Counted from the first letter of the stretch, positions 1,633-23,254 are shown. The stretch: DNA of 32,000 bases from Thermoproteus tenax Kra 1 (GCF_000253055.1 NC_016070.1:720001-752000); one strand, 5' to 3'. A program made the numbers and translations. The notes: generated from the sequence alone by a model not told the origin.

Positions 1633-1659
1633 AGTTCTGGCAATAAATGTAATTTAAAG

Positions 1660-2592
1660 TTAACAGACACATGCGCGTTCGGCCTTTATCTTTGCCAACG
1701 CATCTGAGAGTTTGATTCCTTTAGAGAGGAGTATCTCCAGATCGTACTCGGTGGTAAACCCAAGCTCCCTCAGCCCTTTGGAGGCTGTGAATAGATCCCA
1801 ATTGTTTGCGTAGATCAAACGTGCCATCTTGTTAAGTCTGAGCAACGCCTCGGGCTTAAATCTGAGGGCTACCGGCGTGAACATGTCTATATAGGCCAGC
1901 GCGGCGCCGCCTCTCATTTCAACTGTGCCGTAAAAGCCCTTAAGAGCTCTAAGTACGTTCTTGGAGGCCTCCGTTATACAGCTCTCCGTCAGTTTTTCCA
2001 ACAACGGGATATCCGATGGATCTAGCGCGTAGTAGCCGAGGAAGCCCCCCTCCTGGGCCACGCGCGCTGCCCGCTCCAGAAGATAGCCCCTGTCAAGCTC
2101 ACCGTCGGCGCCCAGCCCTATTACGGCCACATCAACCTCCGCGCCCAGATCCTCGGCCATCTTCAAGACGGCGAGAGAGAACGAGTCTGCTAGCGGTGAT
2201 CTGAGATCCCTCTCGCAGCCGCAGGCCAGTATGTCGCCACCGACATCCACCCCCGTTATTTTCTTGAACCTGGACGTCAGAGCCCTGGCTATTTCGTCGG
2301 GCCTTGCGTCGGGCGAAACAGCGTATACTTCTCTATTCAATACTGCGGAGACGCAGGCCCCTTGGGGTACTGTCTCACGGCCGCCCCTTAAGGCGCGCGA
2401 GCCGGCCTTTATTATAAACAGTGCTCCATCGCCTTCAACGCCAATGAAGTCGGACCTAGTCAAAGGTCCCGGGACAGGGTCTACCACGAAGCGCTCCCAT
2501 GGGAGGAGGCCCACCGAGCCTCCAAGCTTCTGCGCCAGGACAGACGCCGTTATTACATCGCCACCGCCCCCGGCTGCGAAGACGAGCCTCAT
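1660..2592 (-). CDS. Conserved archaeal hypothetical protein, DUF1152-like
   Basis: 310-aa ORF. Its ATG overlaps the stop of the upstream M20 gene (ATGA at 2589-2592), which suggests co-translation. It has an N-terminal AAGGGGDVITA and an internal VDVGGD. The family assignment is from memory only and no function can be assigned. Confidence 0.6.
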   Translation of the reverse strand: MRLVFAAGGGGDVITASVLAQKLGGSVGLLPWERFVVDPVPGPLTRSDFIGVEGDGALFIIKAGSRALRGGRETVPQGACVSAVLNREVYAVSPDARPDEIARALTSRFKKITGVDVGGDILACGCERDLRSPLADSFSLAVLKMAEDLGAEVDVAVIGLGADGELDRGYLLERAARVAQEGGFLGYYALDPSDIPLLEKLTESCITEASKNVLRALKGFYGTVEMRGGAALAYIDMFTPVALRFKPEALLRLNKMARLIYANNWDLFTASKGLRELGFTTEYDLEILLSKGIKLSDALAKIKAERACVC

Positions 2593-3782
2593 TTGAGATT
2601 CCTCAAAAGCTCGACATAGGCCCTCGCCACGTCTATTATCTGTGACACCTCTACATATTCGTCGGGCGCATGTGCCACATACTCGGGGCCCGGCCCGTAG
2701 GTCACAGTGGGTATCCCTCGCCTAATGAAGAACCTTGCATCAAGTCCCCCTATACACACGGTCTTGCGCGGGGCCGCACCGCGCACTTTAGACACAGCCG
2801 ACTCTAGGCTCCTCACTAGGGGATGATCGGGAGCTATCACCGCGGCCTCCGACTTATTGATCACTTTGACCTCCACTCTGTGTTCTAACCCCTCGGCGGC
2901 TCTTCTTATAAACTCCTCCATCTCCCTTCTGACCTCCTCCACGTCCTCCTCAGGTATTATACGCCTATCGAGAGTGAAGGCGAAATATCCGGGTACTACG
3001 TTGGCCTTGACGGAGCCTTTGACCTCGCCGCCCATCGTCAAGGTGGGGCTGGCTCCGCGGGGATCCTCGAACTCATACCGGCTCCTCTTTGTCGCAAGAG
3101 TCGGCATATATTCGGTTAAGATCTTGTTGGCGATCTTGACAGCGCCCTCAAAGGCGTTCAAGCCTAACCAAGGCGTGGATCCATGTACTTGCTTACCGTA
3201 GACCTCGACTAAGAACCATATGAGTCCTCTGTGGCCTATCCATATGTTGTCAACGCCAGAGCCCTCGGCTATGATGGCCCAGGGGGCCTTGACCTTCCCG
3301 CTGTCGGCCAAGTAGCCTGCGCCGGATTCTCCCCCTATCTCCTCATCAGGGACTAGCGACACCTCAAAGTTCTTAAGGCCCTCTCGTACTGCCAGCTCGG
3401 CGGCAAGGAAGATCGAGGTGAGCCCGCCCTTCATATCCACTGCGCCGCGGCCGTAAACTCTTCCATTGATGTAACGCGGCTCGAAGGGCCTCGTGACTAG
3501 CCACGAGCCCTCGGGCCCTGGAGGAACCACGTCGTAGTGTCCGTTGAAGTGCACTCTGGGCTCCCCAATCCTCGCCAGAAGTATATAGCGCGGATGATCG
3601 GAACACTCTGGACAGACCTTTGACACAAGGCTCTTGGGAACTTCGACAACCTCCGTGTCTAGGCCCAGCCTTTTGAAGAAGTCCTCTGCGTAGTCCACAA
3701 AGTCCCGGTAGTGTTCGCCGGGAGGATTGATAGTTGGGATTCTTATCATCTGGGACAGGATCTCGACGGCCCTCGACTCCAT
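2589..3782 (-). CDS. M20 family metallopeptidase/deacylase (ArgE/DapE/carboxypeptidase-like), host-composition copy
   Basis: 397 aa. M20 motifs are present: HFNGHYDVVPPG, GRGAVDMKGG, PDEEIGG and a C-terminal YGPGPEYVAHAPDEYV. An AAATATAT box lies about 20-25 nt upstream of the ATG. Confidence 0.85.
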   Translation of the reverse strand: MESRAVEILSQMIRIPTINPPGEHYRDFVDYAEDFFKRLGLDTEVVEVPKSLVSKVCPECSDHPRYILLARIGEPRVHFNGHYDVVPPGPEGSWLVTRPFEPRYINGRVYGRGAVDMKGGLTSIFLAAELAVREGLKNFEVSLVPDEEIGGESGAGYLADSGKVKAPWAIIAEGSGVDNIWIGHRGLIWFLVEVYGKQVHGSTPWLGLNAFEGAVKIANKILTEYMPTLATKRSRYEFEDPRGASPTLTMGGEVKGSVKANVVPGYFAFTLDRRIIPEEDVEEVRREMEEFIRRAAEGLEHRVEVKVINKSEAAVIAPDHPLVRSLESAVSKVRGAAPRKTVCIGGLDARFFIRRGIPTVTYGPGPEYVAHAPDEYVEVSQIIDVARAYVELLRNLK

Positions 3783-3864
3783 GATACCGATGATTCTCAG
3801 AAATATATGTTGCTCCCCTTACGGCGTCTGCCCTGGGGCTTACCTGAAGCCGGCTCGAGAGCGG

Positions 3865-5013
3865 TCAGGGAGCGCGCGGCTGAGGCGGACGGCAATACGG
3901 CTTTATGTACTTGAACACATCGCTGAGCCTCGGCCTCTCCTTATACAGCACCACATAATGCGGCAGCGAGCGCCACGTTGACAGCGCTAGCCTCTCGTCG
4001 ACTAATACCAAGAACGGAACTTTCGCCGAAGATAGCTTCTCGTATTTGCGCGCCAGATACTCGGGGGTCCAGAAGCCGACAATCTCCACGTACAAGTCGC
4101 CTATCTTGAAGTCTGGTATAAAGAGTCTCCCCTCTATCACTAAGGCCTCCGGCTCTCTCTCGATGCGGCACATAGGGGATATTCTCGCATAGAACTCTTG
4201 CTCCGCTGAGCTGTCAAAGGAGACGGGCTCTATATCTCTCCTCGATAAAGGCGGCGCAGTTGATTTAGAGTCAACGAATTTATACGTCCGACCTCTGAGC
4301 GCTATCTCCGCCTCAATACGCCAGTCATCCGCCGAGATTACATAGGGCACGAGCTTGGCGAACCTAGTCCCGTATCTCTCCGTCTGTCTGAGCACTGTGG
4401 CGGGCCCCTCGGCATCTATCCAGATGCCCTCTCCGGCTCGCCTGGCTATGTACATCAAGCCCAATCTTTTAACGCCTCTCGCAAGCTCTTTAACCGTAGA
4501 TCCCGACGCTTTGACGTAAAAACTGGCGCGTATTGATCGGAAGAGCAACGTCTGGATCAACGACGTGTTGTACAATGCGACCAGCTCCTGCGGCGCTATT
4601 GAGGGAGCACTCACTATGGCTAGCTCATCTTCGTGTATTTTCCTCAAGGCGCCCTCAACTTCAGCCTCGCTCAACCTCAGCCTCTCTGCGACAGCCCTTA
4701 TGATCCTCTGTCGTAACGCCTCATCGACCACAGGGTGCGCCTTGGCGGCCTCTCTGAAGGTCTCAAGTCTGACTCTGGTCAACAGCCTCTTGTTTACTTC
4801 CTCGACCGCTATGAACTTCTCGGCTAGATGAGCCAAGCCTCTGGCCAGTTTGGGAGGCAGCCCGCTCTTCTCGACGTTGGCCCTGGCATCACCAAGCTTG
4901 ACGCCGGGTTTGTAGGCCTCTATAATGCGGCTGGCAGGCCATATGTCTAACAAATAGTCTGGCTTTATCTGATCGCCGCGCCTCTTTACGCGCAATAGAT
5001 CGAGAGGTAGCAC
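3865..5013 (-). CDS. bax1: Bax1-type endonuclease (DUF790, normally the XPB helicase partner)
   Basis: 382 aa with a GTG start. The N-terminus reads MLPLDLLRVKRRGDQIKPDYL. The C-terminal nuclease-like block IPDFKIGDLYVEIVGFWTPEYLARKYEKL is characteristic of DUF790/Bax1 as I recall the family. Confidence 0.75.
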   Translation of the reverse strand: MLPLDLLRVKRRGDQIKPDYLLDIWPASRIIEAYKPGVKLGDARANVEKSGLPPKLARGLAHLAEKFIAVEEVNKRLLTRVRLETFREAAKAHPVVDEALRQRIIRAVAERLRLSEAEVEGALRKIHEDELAIVSAPSIAPQELVALYNTSLIQTLLFRSIRASFYVKASGSTVKELARGVKRLGLMYIARRAGEGIWIDAEGPATVLRQTERYGTRFAKLVPYVISADDWRIEAEIALRGRTYKFVDSKSTAPPLSRRDIEPVSFDSSAEQEFYARISPMCRIEREPEALVIEGRLFIPDFKIGDLYVEIVGFWTPEYLARKYEKLSSAKVPFLVLVDERLALSTWRSLPHYVVLYKERPRLSDVFKYIKPYCRPPQPRAP

Positions 5014-5181: not shown

Positions 5182-5282
5182 TGGGCCCGCCGGGATTCGA
5201 ACCCGGGATCTCCCGCGCACCTAGGCGTTGTCGGCGCGGGCGCCATGTAAGGCGGGCATCCTAGCCGCTAGACTACGGGCCC
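5182..5282 (-). tRNA. tRNA-Val (anticodon TAC) with an approximately 28-nt intron at the canonical 37/38 position
   Basis: The reverse complement reads GGGCCCG TA GTCT AGCGGCTA GGAT G CCCGC CTTACA [TGGCGCCCGCGCCGACAACGCCTAGGTG] C GCGGG AGATC CCGGG TTCGAAT CCCGG CGGGCCC A. All four stems pair. No CCA is encoded. A TTTT run follows about 12 nt downstream, and a TTAAAAAC box lies about 25-30 nt upstream. Confidence 0.85.
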
Positions 5283-5386
5283 GGCGCTATTTTGGTTAAT
5301 GTTTTTAATCGTTTTCCCCGTACCTGCCCGAGGCCCTTACGCGGCGCTGCCTTTAGTGCTTAAATATCGTCATTGATGAGGACTGC

Positions 5387-6541
5387 GTGGATATATTCCA
5401 GAGATATCGCTCAGAGGTAGCCAGGGCGAGGGATATAATAGCTAGAGGCAAGTTTCTCGCTGTAGTACACGACGGGACGGCTCATGCAGACGACACAATA
5501 GCCGCAGCCTTGTTATATAGTGCGGGAGCCGAGGAGGTCTACAGAGTGAGCCAACAAGATGAAATGCTCGAAATAGTGAGGGGGAGGCGTGCCGTAATCG
5601 CTGATGTGGGCTATAAGTACTACGAAGCCCTCAAGTCGGCCGGCGAGGTGGCCATATTAGACCATCATGCTCCCAATGGAGAGCCCGAGTACGTGGAGTT
5701 GCCCTCTTCCCTAATGCAGACTGTCGAGGCGCTCGGCTTGAGACTTAGGCCTAGGATGCAGATGTTATTTACGGCGGCAGACCTAGTGGATAGATTCGGC
5801 GCACTTTCGGCGAAGAGATGGCTCGGCATCTATGGAGCCTCGCTTAACTTGGCCCTCTCCTCATATTTCGGAGCAGTGACGAAGGGCAAGTATGCCGACT
5901 ATAACTTTCTCTCCCTAGTGGCGGAGGCCGCGTCGTCCGATTTCGACGTCCAAGACATAGCTGAATATTCAAAGTCCTACTCAGCAACTGTCGGCGCGAT
6001 CGATGTAGACCCTGAGAAATACCCTAGAGCTCTGGCTCTTCTCAGACTCATGAAGGAGGCATCGCGGGGGGATACATCGATCTATCTGAGCCCGGAGGCC
6101 TATAAGACAGGCTTCGGGATAGATTTTTCGGCGCACGCCGCGCTGGCAGTGCCTCAACTGAGCGAGTACCTAGCCAAGGGGCTCTCGAGATATTTCAACG
6201 AGAACATAAGGGCCATCAAGACAGCTGAGGAGAGACGGTTTGTTATAATAGAGAAGTCCATTAAGGCGATAGCTGTGGAGGACTCCGTATCGCCCACAGC
6301 TCTATGGAATGCACTATTGGACTTAGGCGTGTTGAGGGAGGAGGAGCCGGCTATAGTCGCCGTCAGAGATCTGAGGAACCCAGGCGCATATTCCCTCTGG
6401 AGACCCGATCGCCACAAGCAGATAGACTTCAGAAAGTTGGCCGGCGATAGGGTCATCTTCAGACACCAGTCTGGTTTCATGGCCGTCGTCAGAGCCGACA
6501 GCGCGGAGGACGCAGTCAAATACGCCCTTATGTATCTGTGA
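5387..6541 (+). CDS. MYG1/UPF0160-like (DHH-type) metal-dependent hydrolase, divergent
   Basis: 384 aa with a GTG start. The N-terminal VVHDGTAHADDTIAAALL resembles the MYG1 H.G.FH.DE..A.ALL motif. ADVGYKYY...ILDHH resembles the DVGG.YD...DHH motif. The rest of the protein is not recognisable. Confidence 0.55.
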   Translation: MDIFQRYRSEVARARDIIARGKFLAVVHDGTAHADDTIAAALLYSAGAEEVYRVSQQDEMLEIVRGRRAVIADVGYKYYEALKSAGEVAILDHHAPNGEPEYVELPSSLMQTVEALGLRLRPRMQMLFTAADLVDRFGALSAKRWLGIYGASLNLALSSYFGAVTKGKYADYNFLSLVAEAASSDFDVQDIAEYSKSYSATVGAIDVDPEKYPRALALLRLMKEASRGDTSIYLSPEAYKTGFGIDFSAHAALAVPQLSEYLAKGLSRYFNENIRAIKTAEERRFVIIEKSIKAIAVEDSVSPTALWNALLDLGVLREEEPAIVAVRDLRNPGAYSLWRPDRHKQIDFRKLAGDRVIFRHQSGFMAVVRADSAEDAVKYALMYL

Positions 6542-6933
6542 CCTTCAAGCCAACTCAAGATTGGGCCGAGAAGCTATGCCGAGAGATAACCGGAAATAAG
6601 AGGGCTCCTCAAGAGCTATCCATAGTGGCCGTCGAGGTGCCAGACGAGTTGGGATACGGCCCCACTATGACTCTGTATTTTAAGTTCGATGAGAGGGGGC
6701 GGTGCATATCGTCGCAAATTATTAGGGGGGAGAGGCCAGCTAAGTATATGCTGTCAGGTAGATACGAGGACCTTATACAGATCTTGGAAGGTCGCCTTTC
6801 CCCATTCGCGGCAGTTCCATTGGGGAAGCTCCATGTGATGAGGGGAAGTTTGGGGGAGCTAGCCGAGTATATGCCTCTGGCCCTGGAGATCGTCGAGGCG
6901 GCCCGACGTATTAGCTCACGACAGCACCAATAG
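6538..6933 (+). CDS. SCP2 (sterol-carrier-protein-2-like) domain protein
   Basis: 131 aa. The GTG start overlaps the stop of the upstream gene by 4 nt. The C-terminal half, MLSGRYEDLIQILEGRLSPFAAVPLGKLHVMRGSLGEL, looks like the SCP2 fold signature (..G.l.p..A...Gkl...G). The last about 8 codons lie inside the left direct repeat of the AT-rich island. Confidence 0.6.
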   Translation: MTFKPTQDWAEKLCREITGNKRAPQELSIVAVEVPDELGYGPTMTLYFKFDERGRCISSQIIRGERPAKYMLSGRYEDLIQILEGRLSPFAAVPLGKLHVMRGSLGELAEYMPLALEIVEAARRISSRQHQ

Positions 6934-6955
6934 AGACCACTAAGTTGCCCTGGAC
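6911..6955 (-). pseudogene. Orphan 3'-terminal fragment (14 codons plus stop) of a pilin-like gene; left direct repeat of the AT-rich island
   Basis: The minus strand reads GTC CAG GGC AAC TTA GTG GTC TCT ATT GGT GCT GTC GTG AGC TAA, which is VQGNLVVSIGAVVS*. The intact gene end at 10266-10328 encodes VQGSLVVSTGAAYPFTAVVS*. One 20-nt block is identical (6907-6926 = 10262-10281). A second block matches 23/25 (6931-6955 vs 10304-10328). They are separated by an in-frame 18-nt length difference. Confidence 0.55.
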
Positions 6956-7149
6956 TATAAAGCTCGTTCGTCAGTTTAAGGTGCGACGGCTAAGGCCAAC
7001 TCTCTGGCCACAGTTATTCGCTGATTTGCTCAACAATCTCTAAATATCTCCACGGACTATACCGAGAAATTAGATAAACACGAAGTCCTTAAGGACTAAG
7101 AGGTTCTCATTACTACATTTAATAGTACTTGGATTCTTTAATTATAAAA

Positions 7150-8394
7150 TTAATCAATCCTAAGCCCCAAATATTTTTCAGAAACATATTTTATAACATT
7201 ATAGGTCTTAACCAGGTCATCAATAGCGACATATTCATTGTACGAGTGGGCCAACGTCAAATCACCAGGCCCATAAACCACCGTAGGTATTCCCCTAAGC
7301 CTTAGGTACCTTCCATCAGTCGCTCCAGTTATTATTATTGGCTTAGGCTCGGCCCCTTGCTTAGCTATACCATCTCTAATTAACTGGACAATCATCTCAC
7401 CGGAGCTTGTGTAGTTTGGCTCACTTAGATCAATAACTTCAACTTCAGCTAAGCCACTCAACTCACCCCTTAACTTATCTACCACATTACTCGGCGAGAC
7501 ACCTGGTGGAACTCTCATATCTAATTCAAGCTCAGCATAATCGGGAACCATATTTATTTTCGAGCCACCTTTAATTACGCCTGGGTTAAAGGATACTAGT
7601 CCTACGGTAGCTCTCAAGTCATCTTTGCTGAGCCTTAAACCGGATTTAAGGGCGCCCTCTAGGTAGACCTCAGTAGCATTATCTATCGCTTCAATTAAAT
7701 CTTGAGGATGTTTAATACCTCTGTTAAATTCATCAATGCAAATCCGAGCCCTTTCAATGGCCTTTATGAGCTTGACTATGGCGTTATCCCCAAGTATAGG
7801 CAAGCTACCGTGCGCAGGTTTACCCCTAGTAACAAGCCTAACCTGGCAGAGGCCCTTCTCGCCAATACAGTATTTATCAAAACCAGTTGGCTCAGCTATT
7901 ATGGCTGCATCCCCGATCAGTATGTTATCCTTAACCAAAGCCTCTACACCTGCGTGTCCGCCGACCTCCTCATCGGCTGTGGCTGAGAAAATCAATGTAC
8001 CGGTGCCCTTCTTCTCAACCAGAGGGGCCAACTCGGCGAAGACCATCATTATGACCGCCAATCCGCCTTTCATGTCTGTTGAACCTCTACCGTAGATCTT
8101 GCCTTCCACTATTTTGCCCGAGAAGGGCGGATAGGCCCACTTACTGATATCACCGGGCGGCACCACGTCAGTATGACCGTTTAATATTAGGGTGGGTTTG
8201 CCTGAACCAACCTTAGCAATTAAATTAGGCTTACCCTTAACATACTCATAAATACTGCTTGAGAAACCTTTTGCATTTAACCAATCTTTGATAAAATCTG
8301 TAACATTAGTAACATCCCCGGGAGGGTTAACACTGTTTATCTGAACTAAACGTGAAGTCAATTCGGCTAATTGGTTCTTTAAGTCACTAGACAT
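7150..8394 (-). CDS. M20 family metallopeptidase/deacylase, AT-rich island copy
   Basis: The ORF is open from 8439 (429 aa), but I prefer the internal ATG at 8394 (MSSDLKNQLAELTSRLVQINS), which gives a typical M20 N-terminus. Motifs present are LNGHTDVVPPGD, GRGSTDMKGG, ADEEVGG and YGPGDLTLAHSYNEYV. It is a clear paralog of the 2589-3782 gene but uses AT-rich codons. Confidence 0.85.
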   Translation of the reverse strand: MSSDLKNQLAELTSRLVQINSVNPPGDVTNVTDFIKDWLNAKGFSSSIYEYVKGKPNLIAKVGSGKPTLILNGHTDVVPPGDISKWAYPPFSGKIVEGKIYGRGSTDMKGGLAVIMMVFAELAPLVEKKGTGTLIFSATADEEVGGHAGVEALVKDNILIGDAAIIAEPTGFDKYCIGEKGLCQVRLVTRGKPAHGSLPILGDNAIVKLIKAIERARICIDEFNRGIKHPQDLIEAIDNATEVYLEGALKSGLRLSKDDLRATVGLVSFNPGVIKGGSKINMVPDYAELELDMRVPPGVSPSNVVDKLRGELSGLAEVEVIDLSEPNYTSSGEMIVQLIRDGIAKQGAEPKPIIITGATDGRYLRLRGIPTVVYGPGDLTLAHSYNEYVAIDDLVKTYNVIKYVSEKYLGLRID

Positions 8395-8467
8395 GTTATA
8401 TCCTATTAGATCAAAGATATAAGCATTATGGGATAACACTTAAAAAGCCTTCAATATTGATATTTGT

Positions 8468-8674
8468 ATGGATATCAAGAACCTATTGAAAATAATATTG
8501 CTGATAATAGTGCCGTGGATCTTTATAGTCTTCCTGGCACCGCTCTACAATAGGACTTACCCTGAGATTGGCGGGTGGCCGTTTCTATGGTGGTACTTGT
8601 TTGCATGGATTTTCATACAACCAATATTAACATATATAGTATATAAACTCATTGATAAAGACAGCAAATTATGA
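8468..8674 (+). CDS. Small two-TM membrane protein, DUF3311-like (typical companion of SSS transporters)
   Basis: 68 aa and very hydrophobic, with a GGWPFLWWYLFAWIF segment. The stop overlaps the start of the downstream symporter (ATGA at 8671-8674). This pairing is typical of DUF3311-SSS gene pairs. Confidence 0.6.
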   Translation: MDIKNLLKIILLIIVPWIFIVFLAPLYNRTYPEIGGWPFLWWYLFAWIFIQPILTYIVYKLIDKDSKL

Positions 8675-10137
8675 ATTTTACCATAGCTGATTATTCGATA
8701 TTTTTTACAATAGTTGGATTGACAGTAGTGGCCGCGTTCTTAGGCAGTAGGTGGAGAGCTCCTGACTTCTCCAAAATAGCCGAGTGGAGTATAGGTGGCA
8801 TGAAGTTTGGAGCACTTATAGTCTGGTTTCTCATGGGAGCTGATATATACACAGCCTACTCACTAATAGCAATTCCAGGCGCCGCGTATTCACTGGGTGG
8901 GTTCATCCTATATTCTGTTGTTTACGGCTCAATATCTTATCCGTTTCTCTACATAGTTGCTACTAAGTTCTACAGAATAGCTAAGCGTAAAGGCTACATA
9001 ACCGCTGGCGACTACGTTAGGGATAGGTTTGATAGCGATGTGTTGGCGTTGCTTATATCGCTCACGGGCATCGTTTCAATGCTTCCTTACATTGCCCTCC
9101 AGATAGTTGGTATTAGGTACGTACTGGATGCTATGGGCTTTCCAACTATTCCAAGCTTCGTGATAGCTTATATAATAGTTGCTGCGTTCGTATCGCTAAG
9201 CGGCCTAAGGGGACCAGCCTTGAGCTCATTAATAAAGGATGTTGTATTGTGGGGCGTTATACTCACAGTGATCATCACATTGGGCATACGCTTTGAGGGG
9301 TTTGGCCCCATATTTGCTCAAGTCGGGCCATCCCACTACCTAATACCTAGTAAATTAATCGTGGGTTATATAACGTTGGCTCTCGCCAGCGGAATATCAT
9401 GGTTGCTCTTCCCCAACCTTCTTGTTGGATTGCTCGGCTCTAAGAGCGAGGATGTAATTAAGAAAAATTCTGTGTTTCTACCTTTTTACCAAGTGTGGTT
9501 GCTTTTCCTAGCTATAATGGGGTTGATAGCCTTAGCCAATAACCTTGTACCAAATAATATATCCAGTTTAGCATTTCCTTACGTTCTTAGTGCATACTTT
9601 CCAACTACGTTTGTTGCGATAGCCTTCGCCGGCATAGTCATAGGTAGCATGGTTCCGGCTGGTTTGCAAAGTCTCGGCGCAGCCAATCTAATCACAAGGA
9701 ATATCTATCTGGGAATCATCAATAAGAGGGCCACTGAGAAACAACAAGTATTTTGGGGTAGAGTGGCTGTGTTTATAATGATAATTGCATCGTTAATATT
9801 TGCATTGGTTCCAGCAGCTAGCGGATTAATATTCTTCTTATTGACCTTTTCATATGCCTGGCTTCTACAAACCTTACCGGCAATAATAATGTCAATGTAT
9901 TGGTATAGCTTGGACAAGTACAGCGTAACTGCTGGATGGGTCGTCGGCACCGGATTGGTTACCTATGGCTTAATAACGGTAGGATTCGCATCATCGCTAC
10001 TACCCTGGTTCTACTATATATATGTTGGCTTTCTAGGATTAGTTGTTAATTTAACGACAGTGTTAGTGGTGCATTTAATAGTAAAGATTCTTAAAGTTAA
10101 AGTAACTAGTAAATTAACACCACAAGAACTTCAATAA
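8671..10137 (+). CDS. Sodium:solute symporter (SSS) family transporter
   Basis: 488 aa, polytopic with about 12-13 hydrophobic segments. The N-terminal region, GGMKFGALIVWFLMGADIYTAYSLIAIPGAAY, matches the SSS family pattern. Substrate unknown. Confidence 0.85.
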   Translation: MNFTIADYSIFFTIVGLTVVAAFLGSRWRAPDFSKIAEWSIGGMKFGALIVWFLMGADIYTAYSLIAIPGAAYSLGGFILYSVVYGSISYPFLYIVATKFYRIAKRKGYITAGDYVRDRFDSDVLALLISLTGIVSMLPYIALQIVGIRYVLDAMGFPTIPSFVIAYIIVAAFVSLSGLRGPALSSLIKDVVLWGVILTVIITLGIRFEGFGPIFAQVGPSHYLIPSKLIVGYITLALASGISWLLFPNLLVGLLGSKSEDVIKKNSVFLPFYQVWLLFLAIMGLIALANNLVPNNISSLAFPYVLSAYFPTTFVAIAFAGIVIGSMVPAGLQSLGAANLITRNIYLGIINKRATEKQQVFWGRVAVFIMIIASLIFALVPAASGLIFFLLTFSYAWLLQTLPAIIMSMYWYSLDKYSVTAGWVVGTGLVTYGLITVGFASSLLPWFYYIYVGFLGLVVNLTTVLVVHLIVKILKVKVTSKLTPQELQ

Positions 10138-10261
10138 ATCAATTTATCTATATTTTAAATTATAAATTAAATAACTTTTATTGATCAGATTATAATTAAA
10201 ATAACAAGAATTCAAATACCCTATCTCGTGACTTTAACGCTACCTGAGAGAAGCTGTCTGC

Positions 10262-10328
10262 CGTATTAGCTCACGACAGCAGTGAAGGGATAGGCGGCTC
10301 CAGTAGAGACCACTAAGCTGCCTTGGAC
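10262..10328. repeat. Right direct repeat of the AT-rich island (the intact 3' end of the pilin-like gene)
   Basis: See feature 6911-6955. It contains the same 20-mer CGTATTAGCTCACGACAGCA and the 25-mer TAGAGACCACTAAG(C/T)TGCC(T/C)TGGAC in the same orientation, 3.3 kb from the left copy. Confidence 0.7.
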
Positions 10329-10685
10329 CGTAGTGCCCGGCGCTCCGACGACACCAGGACATCTATAGACCAGGACGGCCATAGCCCCCATTTTGACAAT
10401 GACTCTATTGCCGTTTATCGACGCTTGGCCTGACGACGAATAGGGGAAACACGGCACGTTATCGATATATACACTTATTATCTCCGCCGTAGGAGAGGGG
10501 CCCAAGTTTGAGACTATCAAGGTCAGATAACCCGAGGCGTTTAGCCTAGCCTCAGAGACAGCAACTCTGGTTCCTGACTGTGTGTATGATAGAAACGTCG
10601 TATACATGTACCAACTGAAGGCAACGGCTATAATTATCACAATTGCCAATAAAATCGCTTGTTCTATTGAGATTTGGCCATACAC
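10266..10685 (-). CDS. Type IV pilin-like protein with a class III (prepilin-type) signal peptide
   Basis: 139 aa with a GTG start. A TTAAAAATATAAATT box lies about 21-35 nt upstream. The N-terminus MYG|QISIEQAILLAIVIIIAVAFSWYMY is a short charged leader ending in Gly followed by an about 20-residue hydrophobic helix. The remainder is Ser/Thr/Gly/Val-rich and looks beta-rich. Confidence 0.55.
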   Translation of the reverse strand: MYGQISIEQAILLAIVIIIAVAFSWYMYTTFLSYTQSGTRVAVSEARLNASGYLTLIVSNLGPSPTAEIISVYIDNVPCFPYSSSGQASINGNRVIVKMGAMAVLVYRCPGVVGAPGTTVQGSLVVSTGAAYPFTAVVS

Positions 10686-10767
10686 AATTTAGTTATTATG
10701 TGAATTTATATTTTTAACTTCTTGATTTTATACTCTTGGCCTCTCTCGTTATTAGGGCTTCAGAGAG

Positions 10768-10779
10768 AAATTTTTAAAG
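10768..10779 (+). promoter_or_regulatory. BRE/TATA box (AAATTTTTAAAG) for tRNA-Trp
   Basis: The box is centred about 26 nt upstream of the first tRNA nucleotide (10801). The identical 12-mer recurs at 31826-31837. Confidence 0.55.
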
Positions 10780-10800
10780 TGGCTAGGTATAATCGATAGA

Positions 10801-10877
10801 GGGCCCGTAGCTCAGCAAGGGAGAGCGGCGGGCTCCAGACCCGTAGGTCGGGGGTTCAAATCCCTCCGGGCCCACCA
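10801..10877 (+). tRNA. tRNA-Trp (anticodon CCA), intronless, with 3' CCA encoded
   Basis: GGGCCCG TA GCTC AGCAAGGGA GAGC G GCGGG CTCCAGA CCCGT AGGTC GGGGG TTCAAAT CCCTC CGGGCCC A CCA. This is a clean cloverleaf. Confidence 0.95.
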
Positions 10878-10921
10878 GATTTTACGGCCTCTACCTCTTA
10901 ATTAACTACGAGAGTTCAGAC

Positions 10922-11818
10922 GTGGAGATAGTCCCAATAGCCGAGGAAAGCCTCGGAGTTAGGTCTATGGCGTTGTTCGTAAGGACAAGCGATGTGGGCA
11001 TACTGTTCGACGCAGGCATATCCCTAGCCCCTCGTAGAGACGGCCTTCCGCCGCATCCTCTGGAGCTAGGCCGAGTCGCTGAGCTGAGGAGGGCTATGTT
11101 AGATCTGGCTCCACAGGCAGACGTGATCACAGTATCCCACTATCACCGCGATCACTTTACGCCGTGGTACGCCAGCGCGTACATGGGGACAGACGAGGGG
11201 ACCTTCAGAGCAATATATAGCGGAAAGCTCATCTTGGCAAAATCGCCGCAAGGTCTCAACTGGAGCCAGAGGAGGCGCCACTACGGTTTCGCGAAGGCTG
11301 TGGGAGACATTGCTAGAGTAGAATATGCCGATGGAAAGGCGTATGAGTTCGGGGGGACGAAGATATATGTGTCGACGCCTTTACCGCATGGACCGGAGGG
11401 CTCTGCCGCCGGCTTCGTTATAGCGTTCTCTGTTGAGGTCGCCGACGAAAAGCTTTTGTTTATGCCCGATGTACAAGGGCCGGCCAACGAGAAGGCGCTG
11501 AGCTTTGCCAGAGAGGTTAGGCCAGACATTGTAATAGTGGGGGGTCCTCCGCTATATCTCAAAAGCGTCGACTCCACAATTGGCCTGAGAGGCCTCAAGA
11601 AGCTCTCACAAACGCCGGGACTTCAGCTATTGGTGGTCGCCCATCACACGCTAAGAGAATTGAACTGGAAACGCATCCTATCGCCCATCCTCGAGTTGGC
11701 GGCCAAGCGAGGGATCGAGGTAAAGACTTATGCAGAGCTGTTGGGGCGCGAGGTAGATCTACTTGAGGCTCGGCGGAGGGAGCTATATCGGGAGACTCCA
11801 GTAGGCGAGAGAAAATGA
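10922..11818 (+). CDS. UPF0282 family protein (metallo-beta-lactamase fold)
   Basis: 298 aa with a GTG start. The N-terminus IVPIAEESLGVRSMALFVRTSDVGILFDAGISLAPRRDGLPPHPLE matches the conserved UPF0282 start as I remember it. SHYHRDH is an MBL-like His motif. Confidence 0.75.
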   Translation: MEIVPIAEESLGVRSMALFVRTSDVGILFDAGISLAPRRDGLPPHPLELGRVAELRRAMLDLAPQADVITVSHYHRDHFTPWYASAYMGTDEGTFRAIYSGKLILAKSPQGLNWSQRRRHYGFAKAVGDIARVEYADGKAYEFGGTKIYVSTPLPHGPEGSAAGFVIAFSVEVADEKLLFMPDVQGPANEKALSFAREVRPDIVIVGGPPLYLKSVDSTIGLRGLKKLSQTPGLQLLVVAHHTLRELNWKRILSPILELAAKRGIEVKTYAELLGREVDLLEARRRELYRETPVGERK

Positions 11819-12771
11819 GGAGGCAGACGCTGAACCTCGTCAAAGTAATCACAGAGCTGCTGACTATTGGCGCCCTCGGAGCTCTATTGTACGTCTCAGT
11901 GGATCTAACGGCGGAGAAAATCGCATCAGTGCCCTCCTATGTTTTCGTCCTAATCAAGGCGATTATATTAATAGGCGGAGGAATCGCCGGCGTTAAGGCG
12001 TTAGGCGACTATCTAATAAGAGCGTTGGAGCCCAAGATAGGCGATAGAGCCTATGCGGTAGGCAATACATTCAAGATACTGGGCTATATAGTCGCAATAG
12101 TGGTCGGCTTCTACAAGATCGGAGCAACAAGTCAGATCGCATTGCTCGGCGGCACTATCGCCGGGATTGTCTTGGGCTTGGCCCTACAGCCGGTTCTGAG
12201 CAATCTGTTCGCAGGTCTCCTAATAATTGCGACGAACTTCGTAAGAGTCGGCGACATTGTGCGAGTCATAAACTGGCAAGTGCCCTATCAGTGGGCCTTT
12301 AGTCCCTCCTATAAGTTCTTCTCACCGGACTACGTAGTCCCCGCCTTTAAAGGGAAGGTAGTCGAGGTCAACCTCTTTTATACGGTGTTAGTCACCGACG
12401 TAGGTAGAGAGCTGAAGGTGCCCAACTCCATAATGTTAGGAGGGGCCATAATCGACGAGTCCTCGCCTCAGTGGTCGCAGAGCCTCACGGTCAACGTCCG
12501 AGTGGAGCTCCCCCTCTCGGTAGTCGATTTAAGCTCCCTTGAGGACGTCATTAAGGCGAGACTCGAAGGGCTCAACGTTGTGGGGATATATCTGAACGAA
12601 CAGAGCGATAAAGACTATGTAATTATCCTGGTCAGACTGAATATTCCGCGCGACCAAGACTGGCGCAAGGTTAAGTCGGAGGCGCTCAGAAGGCTCCTCC
12701 AACTACGCAACGAGCTGATAAGCTCCAACGAGGCGAGGTATTTGTGTCTAACTAAGGGCGTGTGCAAGTAG
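11815..12771 (+). CDS. Small-conductance mechanosensitive channel (MscS family)
   Basis: 318 aa. The ATG overlaps the previous stop (ATGA). There are three N-terminal TM helices, then the pore-helix/beta-domain signature LQPVLSNLFAGLLIIATNFVRVGDIVRV. Confidence 0.8.
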   Translation: MRRQTLNLVKVITELLTIGALGALLYVSVDLTAEKIASVPSYVFVLIKAIILIGGGIAGVKALGDYLIRALEPKIGDRAYAVGNTFKILGYIVAIVVGFYKIGATSQIALLGGTIAGIVLGLALQPVLSNLFAGLLIIATNFVRVGDIVRVINWQVPYQWAFSPSYKFFSPDYVVPAFKGKVVEVNLFYTVLVTDVGRELKVPNSIMLGGAIIDESSPQWSQSLTVNVRVELPLSVVDLSSLEDVIKARLEGLNVVGIYLNEQSDKDYVIILVRLNIPRDQDWRKVKSEALRRLLQLRNELISSNEARYLCLTKGVCK

Positions 12772-12910
12772 CGTTTGTCTCTGGGCCATCGACAACACTC
12801 ACTCGCCGACGTCATGCCCAGGGACTTTATTCCTGCCTTCCTCAACAGTCAGGCTGCCTAAGGCTGAGGGTCGTTGGGCGACAACGCGCACGTATAAGCT
12901 TTTCCGAACG

Positions 12911-13169
12911 GCTCTTACAATCGAAAGTCTCGCCCTATAGGGCGGGGAGATTTGAGCATATAACTTTCATGGCAGAGCAGTGAAGAGGGCGGAGGAAGGC
13001 CTAAATAGCAGTACGCGCCATAAGACGGGGCGGGCCAACCTACTCGTAAGATGGCTTCGGCGGGAGGACGCCACAATGCCCGCCCCAGTTAACCCCGAGG
13101 AGGGGCAGCGGGCGAGGCCCCAACGGTGGAGGCCCAGCATGAGTGGGGAGGAGGTCATATAATCTCCAC
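12911..13169 (+). repeat. GC-rich non-coding paralogous element, copy A (putative structured ncRNA or non-autonomous repeat)
   Basis: It aligns with copies B (reverse-complemented) and C. Its parts in order are the palindrome CGCCCTATAGGGCG (12931-12944), CATATAA (12956-12962), TTTCATGGCAGAG..GTGAAGAGGGCGGAG, a GC-rich body, and the end CATGAGTGGGGAGGAGGTCAT followed by the hairpin GTGGGGAG...CTCCAC. Indels relative to B/C break every reading frame. Confidence 0.5.
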
Positions 13170-13311
13170 AAAATATCACTAAACGATAAAATTTCCAACG
13201 ATAAAAGGAAACAGCCTCTCCGCGGCCCTTTTCGCGGGCTATAGCGCGAGCTTTCAAATGGGCCGAACTGAGGTCCACCTCAGCTACGTCCCCTCGTCCC
13301 AGAGGAGACCC

Positions 13312-14496
13312 CTATCTATAGGCAACCAGTGCTTCCCCAATCCTTCTTATACCCTCAATCAGTCTCTCGGTCTTTTCAGCGACGAAGGAGATGCGCACGG
13401 CAGCTTTATAAACTTCACTGAAATAATTGCCCGGCACTAAGGCGACGCTGTATTCCTGCAACAGCTTCTGCGCAAACGCCTCGCCGTCATCAATATAGCT
13501 AGATAAATCTACAAATATAAACATGGAACCTTGCGGTACTTTGAACTTTCCCTCGGGGACGTAGCGCTTCAACGCATCTACGGCTGCATCTCTACGGGCC
13601 CTATATGCGGCTATAAAATCTTTTACATATTTCATTCTAATATCTGAACGTAAATATATTGCAACCATCTTTTGGGCAAACGACGGCGGGCAATACACCA
13701 TCTCCTCATTGACCAACTTTATTCTTGATACGGCCTCCTTTGGGCCATATACATAGCCTAGCCGCCATCCAGGTATCGCAGGATCTTTTGAAAAAGTATT
13801 AATAGAAATTACATTTTCTGGAGCGAGCTTATATAAGTATACATGTTCACCTTCATATATCATTGTCTTATATGCTTCGTCTGTGATCAGCCAGATATCG
13901 TTGTCAATGGCTAAGTCCGCTATAGCCTTCGCCGAGTCTGGAGATATCAGTCTGCCGGTGGGGTTATCAGGAGACACTATTATCACGGCCTTAGTCTTGG
14001 GGGACACAAGCTCTTTCAACCTCTCTACGCTTGGCTGATAACCTTCCTCTAAGGAGGTCCTCAATCTAACTACGCGCGCTCCGAAGTATTCCAACAGAGG
14101 TTTATAGCCAAAGTATGTCGGATCAAAGAGTATTACCTCATCGCCAGGCTCCAAGATGGATGCAAGAGTTGAGAACATCGCGGCTTGTCCGCCGGCGGTG
14201 ACCACTATATGGTCTGGGCTCACGTCCAGCCCGCCCAGCCGCCTCAGATCCTCTGAGATGGCCTCCCTTAGCTCGTAGATCCCCTGGCTTGGAGTATACC
14301 CGTATAGCTCCATGCTCTCCTCTTGGAGCAACTCGGCCATCTTTTGTCTTACCTCTAGCGGTGGAGGTATACTCGGTTGGCCCGCCGACAATATTATTAC
14401 GTCTTTCCCCTCCCTTTTCAGTCTCTCCCTCAATGCGTCAATCTTTCTCGTAGGACTCTCCCTCAGATAGGCGAGTCTCTTCGAGAAGTCTCGCAC
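13312..14496 (-). CDS. Class I/II pyridoxal-phosphate aminotransferase (aspartate aminotransferase-like)
   Basis: 394 aa with a GTG start. A TTTATAATATT box lies about 20-30 nt upstream. It has the PLP-lysine motif FSKDPAIPGWRLGY plus the SPDNPTG and TDEAY blocks. Confidence 0.9.
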   Translation of the reverse strand: MRDFSKRLAYLRESPTRKIDALRERLKREGKDVIILSAGQPSIPPPLEVRQKMAELLQEESMELYGYTPSQGIYELREAISEDLRRLGGLDVSPDHIVVTAGGQAAMFSTLASILEPGDEVILFDPTYFGYKPLLEYFGARVVRLRTSLEEGYQPSVERLKELVSPKTKAVIIVSPDNPTGRLISPDSAKAIADLAIDNDIWLITDEAYKTMIYEGEHVYLYKLAPENVISINTFSKDPAIPGWRLGYVYGPKEAVSRIKLVNEEMVYCPPSFAQKMVAIYLRSDIRMKYVKDFIAAYRARRDAAVDALKRYVPEGKFKVPQGSMFIFVDLSSYIDDGEAFAQKLLQEYSVALVPGNYFSEVYKAAVRISFVAEKTERLIEGIRRIGEALVAYR

Positions 14497-16077: not shown

Positions 16078-16356
<279 letters not shown>

Positions 16357-16408: not shown

Positions 16409-16500
16409 GCCCCGGTCGTCTAGCCAGGTCAAAGGGTGCGCCCGGCTAGGGATATGGGCCTTTCGAGCCCAGGACCCGGGTTCAAATCCCGGCCGGGGCA
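16409..16500 (+). tRNA. tRNA-Glu (anticodon TTC) with an approximately 17-19-nt non-canonical intron between the D-loop and the anticodon stem
   Basis: GCCCCGG TC GTCT AGCCAGGTCA... [about AAGGGTGCGCCCGGCTA] ...GGGATA TGGGC CTTTCGA GCCCA GGAC CCGGG TTCAAAT CCCGG CCGGGGC A. The acceptor, anticodon and T arms are perfect. The gene is 92 nt, against about 74 nt for a canonical tRNA. The intron segment CCGGCTA can pair with the D-loop TAGCC(A)GG. Exact splice sites are not determined. Confidence 0.8.
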
Positions 16501-19705: not shown

Positions 19706-20836
19706 ATGGACGCAAAAATATTGGCCGTCGGTCTGATAGTGGGCCTTCTGATAGGCATCGGCATAGGCTATCTATTACATCAACCTTCGCCGACGGCTGT
19801 TACTACTCCGATCACCACTACGGCCGCGCCAAGCACGCCTGCAACGTTCTCTGTGGGGGCCGCAGGCACTCTCAAGTTTTCATTCAACGATCTATTAAAG
19901 CTCTACTCTCGACTGTACCCAAATATACCGACAGGCCAGCCGCTCTATGAGGGCAGTGGAAAACTGGCACAAGACGAGGCGACGAGCAAACAGTTCAGCT
20001 TTGTGGCGTCGGCTGACACAACCACTATACCTGCGGTTCTCTTCAAAGACAATCTGACGGACTACGAAGTCGCGTTTGGCGTCACTCAGGTGGTTATAAT
20101 CGTCAACTTGAACACGACTGCGGGCAGAGAGGTATACGAGCTCTGGAGACAAGCCCAGAGCTTGCAGCCCTTGTCCGCCCAGTGGAACTCGACGTGGAGA
20201 CAGATCTTTGCCATAATAGCTCTCAACTCCAGCACGGCCGTCGGCGTGTCCGACCCCTTCACCGACCCATCCGGCTATCAGGCCATGTGCATGCTTAAGT
20301 TGGCTGGTCTAACCTTCTTCGGGAACTCGGACCTCCTGTTTGATGCAATATATAGGAATCCTTCGAAGTATTTCATGAGGACTACCGAGGTGGATCTATT
20401 GTCCTTAATGCCAGGGGGCCAGATCCAGTTTATTTTATCCGCGTATCAGTCTAACGCCATTCCTCAAGTCAAGGAGTACCGCGGGCTTACATATATCACG
20501 CTTCCGCCTCAGATAAACTTAGGGTCTCTAAATTATACAGACTACTACCACAGCGTGAGCGTAACTTGGACCGAGGCCGGTAAGACGAAGACCTTCGCGT
20601 GCAATCCCGTGATATACACGTTCACAATACCGAGGACAGCGCCTAATCCGGAGGCGGCTGTTTACTTTGCCTTGCTCATCTTCAGCCCACAGGGACAGAA
20701 AGTGCTTAGAAGCTACGGAATAGACCCCATAAGCCCTGGGATCGTCTACGGCAATATTTCAGATGTGCCAACTCCGTTGAGACCCTTTGTGGTTTCTCTG
20801 TCGCAAGTGCCTCAATACTCCTCGGCATTTCCCTAA
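19706..20836 (+). CDS. wtpA: ABC transporter substrate-binding protein, WtpA/ModA-like (tungstate/molybdate class)
   Basis: 376 aa. It has an N-terminal membrane anchor and a Thr/Pro-rich linker. The blocks AAGTLKFSF, GSGKLAQ, ASADTTTIP and DPFTDPSGYQA parallel the AGSL..PF, SGS, ASAD..IP and DP.CGYR blocks of Pyrococcus WtpA as I recall them. Confidence 0.6.
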   Translation: MDAKILAVGLIVGLLIGIGIGYLLHQPSPTAVTTPITTTAAPSTPATFSVGAAGTLKFSFNDLLKLYSRLYPNIPTGQPLYEGSGKLAQDEATSKQFSFVASADTTTIPAVLFKDNLTDYEVAFGVTQVVIIVNLNTTAGREVYELWRQAQSLQPLSAQWNSTWRQIFAIIALNSSTAVGVSDPFTDPSGYQAMCMLKLAGLTFFGNSDLLFDAIYRNPSKYFMRTTEVDLLSLMPGGQIQFILSAYQSNAIPQVKEYRGLTYITLPPQINLGSLNYTDYYHSVSVTWTEAGKTKTFACNPVIYTFTIPRTAPNPEAAVYFALLIFSPQGQKVLRSYGIDPISPGIVYGNISDVPTPLRPFVVSLSQVPQYSSAFP

Positions 20837-21630
20837 TGTTTAAAATTTTTTTAGTAATTTTATTTCTTATATTGTTTTTCTTTTTCATCTATCCTATAAT
20901 TCTCCTTATATATATTGCCCTCCCTGGACTTGAGGGTGCATTGCTCACTAAGTCTTTCCTAGAGTCCTTTGGCTTAACCGTACTTATATCCAGTGCAGCC
21001 TCGCTCGTGGCCGTGGTACTAGGGGTTCCCACAGCCTATATACTCACTAGATATAACTTTCCGCTTAAACAAATAGTTGATGCCCTTATGGACATACCAA
21101 TCGTTATCCCCCACACCGTGGTTGGCATAATGGTCATCCTGGCGTTCGCAGACTATGGGCTGGGGCCCTACCTTAACTCGCTCGGCCTCAAGATAATAGA
21201 TGCCATCCCGGGCGCCATTATAGCAGTGTCTTATCTATCGGCGACATATGCCCTTAGGAGTATACAGAGTGCGCTCAGGCTGTTGGACCCAGAGTTAGAA
21301 AACGTGGCGCGAACTTTAGGCGCAAGCCCGCTCAGATCGTTCCTCTATGTGGTTCTGCCGAATATAAGTGGCGCGATCGCCGACGGTGCGCTCCTTTCTT
21401 GGGCCAGGTCAGTCTCAGAGTCGGGGGCTCTGTTGGTGGTGGCCTACTATGTGATCCTGGGTACTCGCTCGATTTATCCGGCCTCGATATACATATATCA
21501 GTCCTACATCGGCGTCGGTCTCGCAGATGCGGTGAAGTTCTCGGCCGCGCTTGTCCTCATAGTCATCTCTATATTTTTGGCATATAGGGCTCTCTTGGGC
21601 CATGTTAGAGCTAAGGGGGCTAAGGGCTAA
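20836..21630 (+). CDS. wtpB: ABC transporter permease (WtpB/ModB-like)
   Basis: 264 aa. The start overlaps the wtpA stop (TAATG). The EAA-loop-like segment is LENVARTLGASPLRSFLYVVLPNISGAI. The first about 30 codons are extremely AT-rich. Confidence 0.75.
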   Translation: MFKIFLVILFLILFFFFIYPIILLIYIALPGLEGALLTKSFLESFGLTVLISSAASLVAVVLGVPTAYILTRYNFPLKQIVDALMDIPIVIPHTVVGIMVILAFADYGLGPYLNSLGLKIIDAIPGAIIAVSYLSATYALRSIQSALRLLDPELENVARTLGASPLRSFLYVVLPNISGAIADGALLSWARSVSESGALLVVAYYVILGTRSIYPASIYIYQSYIGVGLADAVKFSAALVLIVISIFLAYRALLGHVRAKGAKG

Positions 21631-22516: not shown

Positions 22517-22725
22517 CTAATAAATAATAAAGAAAATAATATTAGCGCTTGAATTAATATTAAGATTAGTATTACTACTATTTCATCTTTTTTAATACAT
22601 TGTAGTATACGCTTTCCACACCCCGGAGTTTTTGCGACAAATATAATATATGTGACAAAGACGATCAGAGAGTACGCGGCCAATGCGCCCACGAGCGCAA
22701 GCATGAGCCACTCGCGCATGGCCAA
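22513..22725 (-). CDS. Small hypothetical two-TM membrane protein
   Basis: 70 aa. An ATTTAAAAT box lies about 20-27 nt upstream of the ATG, which fits leaderless spacing. There are two hydrophobic helices. The 3' half is very AT-rich, and the stop overlaps the wtpC stop convergently. It could be spurious. Confidence 0.4.
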   Translation of the reverse strand: MAMREWLMLALVGALAAYSLIVFVTYIIFVAKTPGCGKRILQCIKKDEIVVILILILIQALILFSLLFIS

Positions 22726-22745
22726 CCTATAGGATCATTTTAAAT

Positions 22746-23190: not shown

Positions 23191-23254
23191 TTATTAAATA
23201 GCTTTAATAAAGTAAAATAATTTTTGAAAAATTTTTAATTAATATTATATATTT

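Follow-up and report, generated by a model that had tools for sequence, protein, structure and literature searches.

In the window under study, a stretch of 32,000 nucleotides of the Thermoproteus tenax Kra1 genome (NC_016070.1:720001-752000; genome position = window position + 720,000), we identified a 3306-nt insert at the 20-nt overlap of two convergent host genes, TTX_0842 for an SCP2/sterol-carrier-like protein and TTX_0846 for a pilin-like protein, and this insert is flanked by a duplicated 67-bp sequence, hereafter referred to as R. The inserted foreign DNA (positions 6956-10261; hereafter the island) carries a cassette of three genes, TTX_0843 (M20-type metallo-deacylase), TTX_0844 (DUF3311 small membrane protein) and TTX_0845 (sodium:solute symporter family permease), and the origin of the cassette is a Vulcanisaeta/Caldivirga-like archaeon. 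The locus represents a clean, fairly ordinary case of horizontal gene transfer, well resolved and not very surprising. A sequence-only reading of the window had proposed that foreign DNA entered at the pilin-like gene's 3' end, with a duplication of this end on the flanks, and the comparison with other strains bears this out.

The empty site was found on two Logan contigs from independent samples, L016 (SRR24079460) and L017 (SRR31758307), which encode the identical 384-aa flank protein and show 97-98% nucleotide identity. On both contigs the 384-aa gene is followed by the SCP2-like gene (130 aa) and then by the pilin-like gene, the latter two being convergent with a 20-nt overlap (1659-1678 in L016) and no island in between; L016 continues into the MBL and MscS genes, and L017 stops just past the pilin-like gene. 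Positions 1-1721 of L016 correspond to window 5253-6955 at 97.4% identity, and positions 1655-4389 to window 10262-12991 at 98.3%. Since L016 1655-1721 matches both sides of the island, the 67-nt R occurs once in the empty site and twice in Kra1. Convergence of these two genes with no insert was also seen in two outgroups, the metagenome-assembled genomes (MAGs) L021 (Thermoproteus) and L028 (labelled Pyrobaculum), in which the 384-aa protein is 67-69% identical to that of the window; the two reading frames overlap by 20 nt in L028 (7881-7900) and lie 5 nt apart in L021 (11543/11549). The trio of 384-aa, SCP2-like and pilin-like genes is conserved across the empty-site genomes, L021 and L028, and the genes to the right of the pilin-like gene differ. 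Because L021 and L028 also lack the insert, the empty arrangement is the ancestral one. The direct convergence of the two genes in relatives, predicted by the sequence-only reading, was thus observed in all four of L016, L017, L021 and L028.

A second island-bearing strain, represented by contig L011 (SRR28178317), matches window 6946-10291 at 97.5% identity. The island is therefore a presence/absence polymorphism among strains of 97-99% nucleotide identity, and TTX_0843-0845 should be regarded as strain-variable accessory genes. A metagenome scan with the 384-aa flank protein yielded no relatives, and a scan of the genome collection with the MBL protein yielded only Thermoproteus MAGs (66-68% identity), which keep the MBL-MscS synteny and not the left side and are uninformative on the empty site. 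Three short-read contigs, all from one run series (SRR28178316, SRR28178317 and SRR28178319), end at or in R: L019 (left flank) and L011 (island) both end exactly 30 nt into R (10291), and L018 ends exactly at the right edge of full-length R (corresponding to 6955/10328). The Logan assemblies are presumably built on a de Bruijn graph of k = 31, for which 30 nt is k-1. The breaks are suggestive only, either of coexisting empty and occupied alleles or of two perfect 67-nt copies of R in that strain; L011 ends at window 6945 and 10291, and its left end does not fit the simple k-1 picture.

As to the repeat itself, the 20-mer CGTATTAGCTCACGACAGCA occurs exactly twice in the window, at 6907-6926 and 10262-10281, in the same orientation as had been claimed from sequence inspection. 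The adjoining 29-mer (10300-10328 versus 6927-6955) differs at 3 positions, and gapped alignment places an 18-nt indel between the 20-mer and 29-mer blocks. Neither pattern was matched again in 100 dinucleotide-preserving shuffles. The repeat translations quoted in the sequence-only reading are correct and its 20-mer stands, and the extent that it gave to the repeat needs revision: the unit is R of 67 nt, sharply bounded, single-copy in the empty-site strains and present twice in Kra1, with a left copy of 49 nt, and it also covers the stop codon of the SCP2-like gene. In the empty site, R spans the last 24 nt of the SCP2-like reading frame plus the last 63 nt of the pilin-like reading frame, so that it covers the 3' ends of both convergent genes and not that of the pilin-like gene alone. 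Both host genes stay complete in Kra1 because R, spanning their overlap, is duplicated.

The right copy (attR-like, 10262-10328, full 67 nt) provides the pilin-like gene with its real 3' end; it differs from the empty site by one substitution, a synonymous strain single-nucleotide polymorphism (SNP); the pilin-like protein of the empty-site strains is identical to that of Kra1. The left copy (attL-like, 6907-6955), as defined by repeat search and empty-site alignment, differs from the empty site by an 18-nt deletion and two substitutions, leaving 49 nt. It includes the last 27 nt of TTX_0842 with the stop codon, and the SCP2-like protein is of 131 aa ending in RQHQ in Kra1 versus 130 aa ending in RQQ in the empty-site strains; an exact look-up of the 131-aa protein returned no record. 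Inverted repeats were found neither within R nor joining the island ends. Partial matches to the host flank just outside R (7/12 positions to the left of the right copy and 6/11 to the right of the left copy; P = 0.014 and 0.034) were judged too weak to represent extended homology. The absence of a tRNA target, as stated in the sequence-only reading, is correct insofar as the repeat touches no tRNA; a tRNA-Trp gene (10801-10877), overlooked there, lies 473 nt to the right of the right repeat and 115 nt upstream of the start of the pilin-like gene. As R does not overlap tRNA-Trp, this gene was not the integration target.

The island also stands out in composition. Its GC content is 41.3% versus 52.9% in the rest of the window, and 6956-10261 is the lowest-GC 3.3-kb stretch of the whole 32 kb, in agreement with the AT-rich segment delimited by eye. 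The GC content at third codon positions (GC3) is 0.42-0.48 for the three island genes, 0.60-0.66 for most host genes and 0.50 at the host minimum. The relative synonymous codon usage (RSCU) of the island genes correlates at 0.38-0.45 with host genes and at 0.71 with V. distributa genes outside the module, and that of the host genes at 0.50-0.91 with host genes and at 0.13-0.49 with V. distributa. The codon usage of the island is Vulcanisaeta-like, deviating from the host in both GC3 and RSCU as would be expected from the sequence-only reading. The T. tenax genome paper (PMC3189178) describes three low-G+C regions, of which the island is not one; its assignment to 'low G+C region 2' was considered and rejected, region 2 being TTX_0583-0588. 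Further short low-GC patches (0.44-0.45) of the window are located at 20501-21250 (ABC-transporter permease), 22251-22750 (intergenic region) and 28751-29250 (succinate-dehydrogenase membrane subunit).

The closest relatives of the cassette proteins belong to Vulcanisaeta and Caldivirga, low-GC lineages among which the sequence-only reading had predicted the best hits. TTX_0845 is 83-86% identical to its best matches in these two genera, followed by a next tier at about 65% (Fervidicoccus, Thermoplasmata and Conexivisphaerales), and in a neighbour-joining tree it is nested within the Vulcanisaeta/Caldivirga clade. TTX_0843 is 70-77% identical to the Vulcanisaeta copies, its best hit in the genome paper (2011) being Caldivirga maquilingensis, and TTX_0844 is 68-81% identical to them with Vdis_0296 as the best hit. 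The flanking 384-aa, SCP2-like and pilin-like proteins are only 55-68% identical to those of the nearest other Thermoproteus species. The symporter search gave one Thermoproteus-labelled protein (partial, 80%) and no Pyrobaculum-labelled one, most of the matches carrying no organism label. The annotation table of the genome paper mentions V. distributa as best hit at least 116 times; with so many T. tenax genes having a V. distributa best hit, such a hit alone is no proof of transfer, and it is the best hits combined with the composition and the empty site that establish the transfer. With the sampled members of the Vulcanisaeta/Caldivirga group, the coding DNA shares only about 72% identity, so that the donor is an unsampled one.

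V. distributa (L012) and three other Vulcanisaeta-like contigs carry these three genes with order and orientation unchanged, in at least three different neighbourhoods. The module in L015 (4657-9035) and L026 (11876-15258) adjoins a cluster of CbiA, T2SSE ATPase and KaiC-RecA-like genes, that of V. distributa has an AlaX-like gene on one side and an aminotransferase on the other, and that of L024 adjoins a pterin-binding gene and a PIN/MazE pair. The three-gene module thus changes its surroundings as one unit between these loci. The intergenic gaps beside the module on Vulcanisaeta-like contigs are 360-410 nt. No integrase adjoins the module in the four Vulcanisaeta-like loci; no R-like sequence and no homology to the non-coding ends of the island was detected there by blastn-short and tblastx; only short chance-level matches were found as direct repeats around the module in V. 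distributa and Vulcanisaeta sp.; and no pilin-like gene is recognisable beside it in L015 and L026. Within our window, an aminotransferase gene (13312-14496, minus strand) shows a GC content of 0.48, a GC3 of 0.52 and an RSCU correlation of 0.50 with other host genes. Its arrival together with the island, after the manner of the aminotransferase following the module in V. distributa, was considered and rejected because Thermoproteus relatives have it in synteny at 76-81% identity; this gene is native to the host and outside the island.

Between Kra1 and L011, the synonymous divergence (dS) of the island is 0.047-0.069, and its ratio of non-synonymous to synonymous divergence (dN/dS) is about 0.17 for the M20 gene and about 0.10 for the symporter gene; the dS of flank genes between Kra1 and the empty-site strains is 0.037-0.070. 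The cassette genes are intact and evolve under purifying selection, so that the cassette is functional in its host. By the same figures, the age of the cassette in this lineage is about the divergence time of these strains, and it did not arrive in Kra1 at the last minute.

For the mechanism of entry, we favour an att-type insertion by a single crossover via R, catalysed by a recombinase that the island does not encode, and give this an even chance of being correct. Chromosomal R would have recombined with R on a circular DNA in one reciprocal (Campbell-type) crossover, attB and attP thereby giving attL and attR; in Kra1, the redundant left copy has begun to decay. The recombinase may have been supplied by a larger integrative element that later lost its backbone, or in trans by a different element; alternatively, host homologous recombination may have acted on the 67 bp. 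The reading accounts for a sharply bounded R of 67 bp at the 3'-distal end of a protein-coding gene, and the single, precise R of the empty strains looks like an attB. Crenarchaeal att sites are 29-69 bp in length (She et al. 2002 as cited in PMC6563490), 3'-distal parts of protein-coding genes are established archaeal integration targets (PMC6563490), and the cis-mobilizable elements (CIMEs) are a class that keeps attL and attR after losing the recombination genes (PMC5704250).

A series of searches weighs against an att-type insertion. No integrase or transposase family was matched by Pfam in 28 reading frames of the window, i.e., all non-overlapping ones of at least 100 aa except 30014-31762 (582 aa, 20 kb from the island), and the sequence-only reading was right in stating such an absence for the frames scanned. 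Pfam and NCBIfam searches of the three island reading frames gave only M20, DUF3311 and SSF, and no integrase, replication, conjugation or virion gene. Fragments of a partitioned integrase were not found in the island, its non-coding ends (194 and 124 nt) being too short to hold them, and the hypothetical circular form would hold just 386 nt of non-coding DNA. Remnants of a backbone gene were not detected by tblastx or blastn of the island ends, and R lacks the inverted-repeat core typical of tyrosine-recombinase sites. Among the rows listed of the Kra1 annotation table there is one small 'integrase-resolvase', TTX_1601, and no extrachromosomal element is reported in the genome paper (PMC3189178). 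Outside the genome, blastn of the island with both repeats against phage and plasmid collections gave no match, IMG/VR contained no relatives of the symporter, and zero matches were obtained for the 20-mer core in metagenomes and IMG/VR and for a 23-mer of R in IMG/VR; neither an attP form nor another element using R was found. Moreover, R is specific to the T. tenax lineage, with 78% nucleotide identity to the orthologous site of L028, so that a circle bearing R must have come from such a host, which leaves the first event unexplained.

A bolder version of the att-type insertion takes the island as a minimal, still-mobile cassette lacking an integrase, i.e., a 3.37-kb circle composed of an uptake module and one 67-bp att site; we consider this improbable. 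If it were true, a helper element or host recombination would excise the cassette and reinsert it at the SCP2/pilin overlap, shuttling metabolic genes among hot-spring Thermoproteales, and bacterial CIMEs or satellite cassettes would have in the island a counterpart among archaea. A review devoted to the tyrosine recombinases of archaea gives no example from the Thermoproteales (PMC8371274).

The best-surviving rival, which we hold possible and yet rather unlikely, is a one-step illegitimate capture, in which linear foreign chromosomal DNA, perhaps acquired from the environment, entered a staggered break or was copied in by replication template switching and fill-in synthesis duplicated the 67 bp, with no att site, circle or recombinase; selection would then keep only those events that duplicate the 20-nt overlap and leave both host genes intact. 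Such a capture agrees with an island that is made of cargo plus short non-coding ends without a mobility gene, and with R as a host-lineage-specific sequence. It also agrees with the state of the two copies, the right one being the empty site bar one SNP and the left one being nearer to the empty site in L011, as if both began as copies of the resident target. With gaps of the above size (360-410 nt) beside Vulcanisaeta-like modules, the ends of a contiguous donor fragment could fall within non-coding sequence, and uptake of DNA is plausible for T. tenax, which uniquely encodes the DprA/ComF competence genes (PMC3189178). However, the landing at a gene 3' end with a duplication of att size would be a coincidence, which the att model explains directly, and microhomology is not evident at either junction. 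In addition, a target duplication of 67 bp far exceeds the length produced by known transposition or fill-in systems; casposons, for example, generate about 14-15 bp.

The sequence-only reading took the left repeat for the tail of a pilin gene (ending ...VQGNLVVSIGAVVS) that is allelic or orthologous to the resident one; as a rival, the donor DNA would have carried this tail and brought the island in by homologous recombination through it. The 18-nt gap is indeed in frame, every difference of the left copy falls to the right of the exact 20-nt core, which a crossover within the core would produce, and the partial matches just outside R (7/12 and 6/11) are in the same direction. However, the C-terminal motif GA[AT][YFL]PF is kept in 7/7 pilin homologues found, P133 and F134 being invariant, and the gap deletes exactly these conserved residues; in the pilin frame, each of the two substitutions of the left copy is non-synonymous; L011 retains the empty-site base at 6945, which makes the change there recent and Kra1-specific; similarity at the protein level ends sharply at both edges of R; and no SCP2-like or pilin-like sequence stands beside the module in Vulcanisaeta-like loci. 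At a strain-level synonymous divergence of 0.04-0.07 (4-7%), neutral decay can explain that a redundant copy of 49-67 nt acquired two substitutions and lost one segment by deletion. On these grounds a donor pilin tail is very unlikely, and the left copy is a decaying duplicate of the resident target.

That the island is ancestral to the lineage and was deleted between the repeats in the empty strains, with no recent transfer, is hardly credible: recombination between two copies of R would restore the exact empty-site sequence, and the dS of the island between island-bearing strains is similar to that of the flanks, so that the arrival in Kra1 was not very recent, but the two outgroups at 67-69% protein identity are empty, composition and codon usage are foreign, and the symporter search gave, among mostly unlabelled matches, just one partial Thermoproteus-labelled protein (80%) and no Pyrobaculum-labelled one. 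Loss may well have occurred in some strains, only after the horizontal gain. In Kra1, such a loss through recombination of the repeats should be less likely, as the 18-nt deletion leaves 20 + 29 nt of homology between them.

By description, the locus behaves like an integrated element at a gene 3' end, and it fits both a CIME-like scar and a horizontally transferred islet. An integrase-encoding archaeal element (SSV-type or pNOB8-type) does not fit: the flanking repeats do correspond to a single attB in the empty sites, and integrase and backbone are lacking. As in a CIME, attL and attR are kept (the Kra1 attL minus 18 nt) and the integration and transfer genes are missing. The hallmarks of a horizontally transferred islet, i.e., deviant composition and codon usage, homologues in another lineage, and strain presence/absence with an intact empty site, were all observed. 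A transposon, insertion sequence or casposon does not fit, with no terminal inverted repeats, no transposase and a duplication of 67 bp. Neither does an element exploiting the Xer/dif system (integrative mobile elements exploiting Xer, IMEX), since R is 67 nt long without inverted arms versus about 28 bp for dif, the archaeal dif consensus not having been compared.

Among known systems, the archaeal integrative elements residing in the 3' ends of protein genes, such as the integrated mobile genetic elements of thaumarchaea (PMC6563490), resemble the Kra1 island in the direct repeat of att length, the intact target, the restored stop codon of the adjacent gene and the verifiable empty site. An integrase gene, usually accompanied by genes for replication, conjugation or virions, is present in those elements, whereas the island is only 3.3 kb long and holds metabolic cargo. 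The CIMEs of Streptococcus and other bacteria (PMC5704250) are alike in keeping attL and attR in the absence of integration and transfer genes; they are, however, decay products of bacterial integrative and conjugative or integrative and mobilizable elements, whereas the Kra1 island is crenarchaeal, carries no visible backbone remnant and is known from sequence alone. Ordinary islets of horizontal transfer share with it the deviant GC content and codon usage, the incongruent phylogeny and the strain polymorphism, but most of them are without precise borders, whereas the Kra1 island has an exact 67-bp duplication over a convergent-gene overlap. The M20/DUF3311/symporter module of V. distributa (Vdis_0296 region) and C. 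maquilingensis has these genes arranged alike in order and orientation, with proteins that are 68-86% identical, and unlike in Kra1 it stands in different neighbourhoods without flanking duplication. In the 'gene capture' by SSV-type integrases of Sulfolobus, foreign genes are said to become fixed between att repeats once the integrase is unavailable. With SSV-type integration, each border retains one half of the integrase gene, and the target is usually a tRNA gene. The Kra1 island differs from such capture in having no integrase halves at its borders (the non-coding ends total 318 nt) and in that its repeat lies off the tRNA-Trp gene.

The value of the locus is that an inter-family transfer in a hyperthermophilic crenarchaeon is resolved to the base: cargo and likely donor clade are defined, as are the point of insertion, the 67-bp duplication and the allele without the insert in natural populations. 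It illustrates that DNA can be inserted into a convergent-gene overlap without damage to either gene and, with attL, attR and attB known, it offers a test case for integrase-less entry into Thermoproteales, whether through a helper recombinase, host recombination acting on 67 bp or the repair of breaks.

Within the island, the left non-coding end (6956-7149, 194 nt) contains a terminator-like hairpin (7084-7097) behind the M20 gene. TTX_0843 (7150-8394, minus strand; genome 727150-728394) encodes an M20 metallo-deacylase of ArgE/DapE type with 414 aa, matching Pfam Peptidase_M20 and M20_dimer (E = 1.5e-35) and NCBIfam NF006399 (504 bits versus a cutoff of 381). TTX_0844 (8468-8674, plus strand; genome 728468-728674), for a 68-aa protein matching Pfam DUF3311, overlaps with its 3' end the start of the symporter gene by 4 nt. 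TTX_0845 (8671-10137, plus strand; genome 728671-730137) encodes an MctP-like permease of 488 aa matching Pfam SSF, its score for NCBIfam MctP of 364 bits being under the model cutoff of 625. The right non-coding end (10138-10261, 124 nt) is very AT-rich, with 16% GC at 10100-10199. Judged from the protein families only, the cassette likely serves for the import of an N-acylated amino acid, a small peptide or a carboxylate-type substrate, followed by its hydrolysis. The host has an M20 gene of ArgE/DapE type of its own, TTX_0839 (2589-3782, minus strand), only 3.4 kb from the imported one. In L021, tblastn with the island M20 protein gave a sole match, 31% identical, to an M20 gene (5759-6952) in the same syntenic block as TTX_0839, which is probably the TTX_0839 orthologue.

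On the left, the island is adjoined by a conserved 384-aa protein gene and the SCP2-like gene TTX_0842 (6538-6933, plus strand; genome 726538-726933), annotated as 'putative sterol carrier protein' and giving a weak Pfam SCP2 match. On the right, the pilin-like gene TTX_0846 (10266-10685, minus strand; genome 730266-730685), for a 139-aa protein with a class III signal peptide (weak Pfam Class_IIIsignal match), is followed by tRNA-Trp and the genes for an MBL-fold hydrolase and an MscS channel. The annotation table places TTX_0841 at genome 725387-726541 and TTX_0847 at genome 730922-731818. A scan for promoters and terminators remained at background level, Rfam detected nothing beyond tRNA over 6500-11000, and no mention of TTX_0842-0846 was found in the literature searched.

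Elsewhere in the window, Rfam indicated tRNA genes at 5182-5282 (minus strand, 101 nt) and 16409-16500 (plus strand, 92 nt), neither of which was reported by ARAGORN; both probably contain introns. Three copies of a GC-rich element, each about 300 nt long, lie at about 12905-13227 (plus strand), 16090-16350 (minus strand) and 22935-23250 (plus strand), each laid out as a hairpin CTCGCCCTATAGGGCGGGG, an A/T box and then TTTCATGGCAGAG..GTGAAGAGGGC. Two of the copies are 98% complementary across 113 nt. No Rfam family was matched by this element, and the consensus fold of the three sequences has 49 pairs, only 4 of them compensatory. The empty-site contig L016 retains the first 85 nt or so of copy 1 (4308-4389) and lacks window 12992-13223 (232 nt), a second strain polymorphism. 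The copies may be small RNA genes of one family, or the element may be a miniature mobile one.

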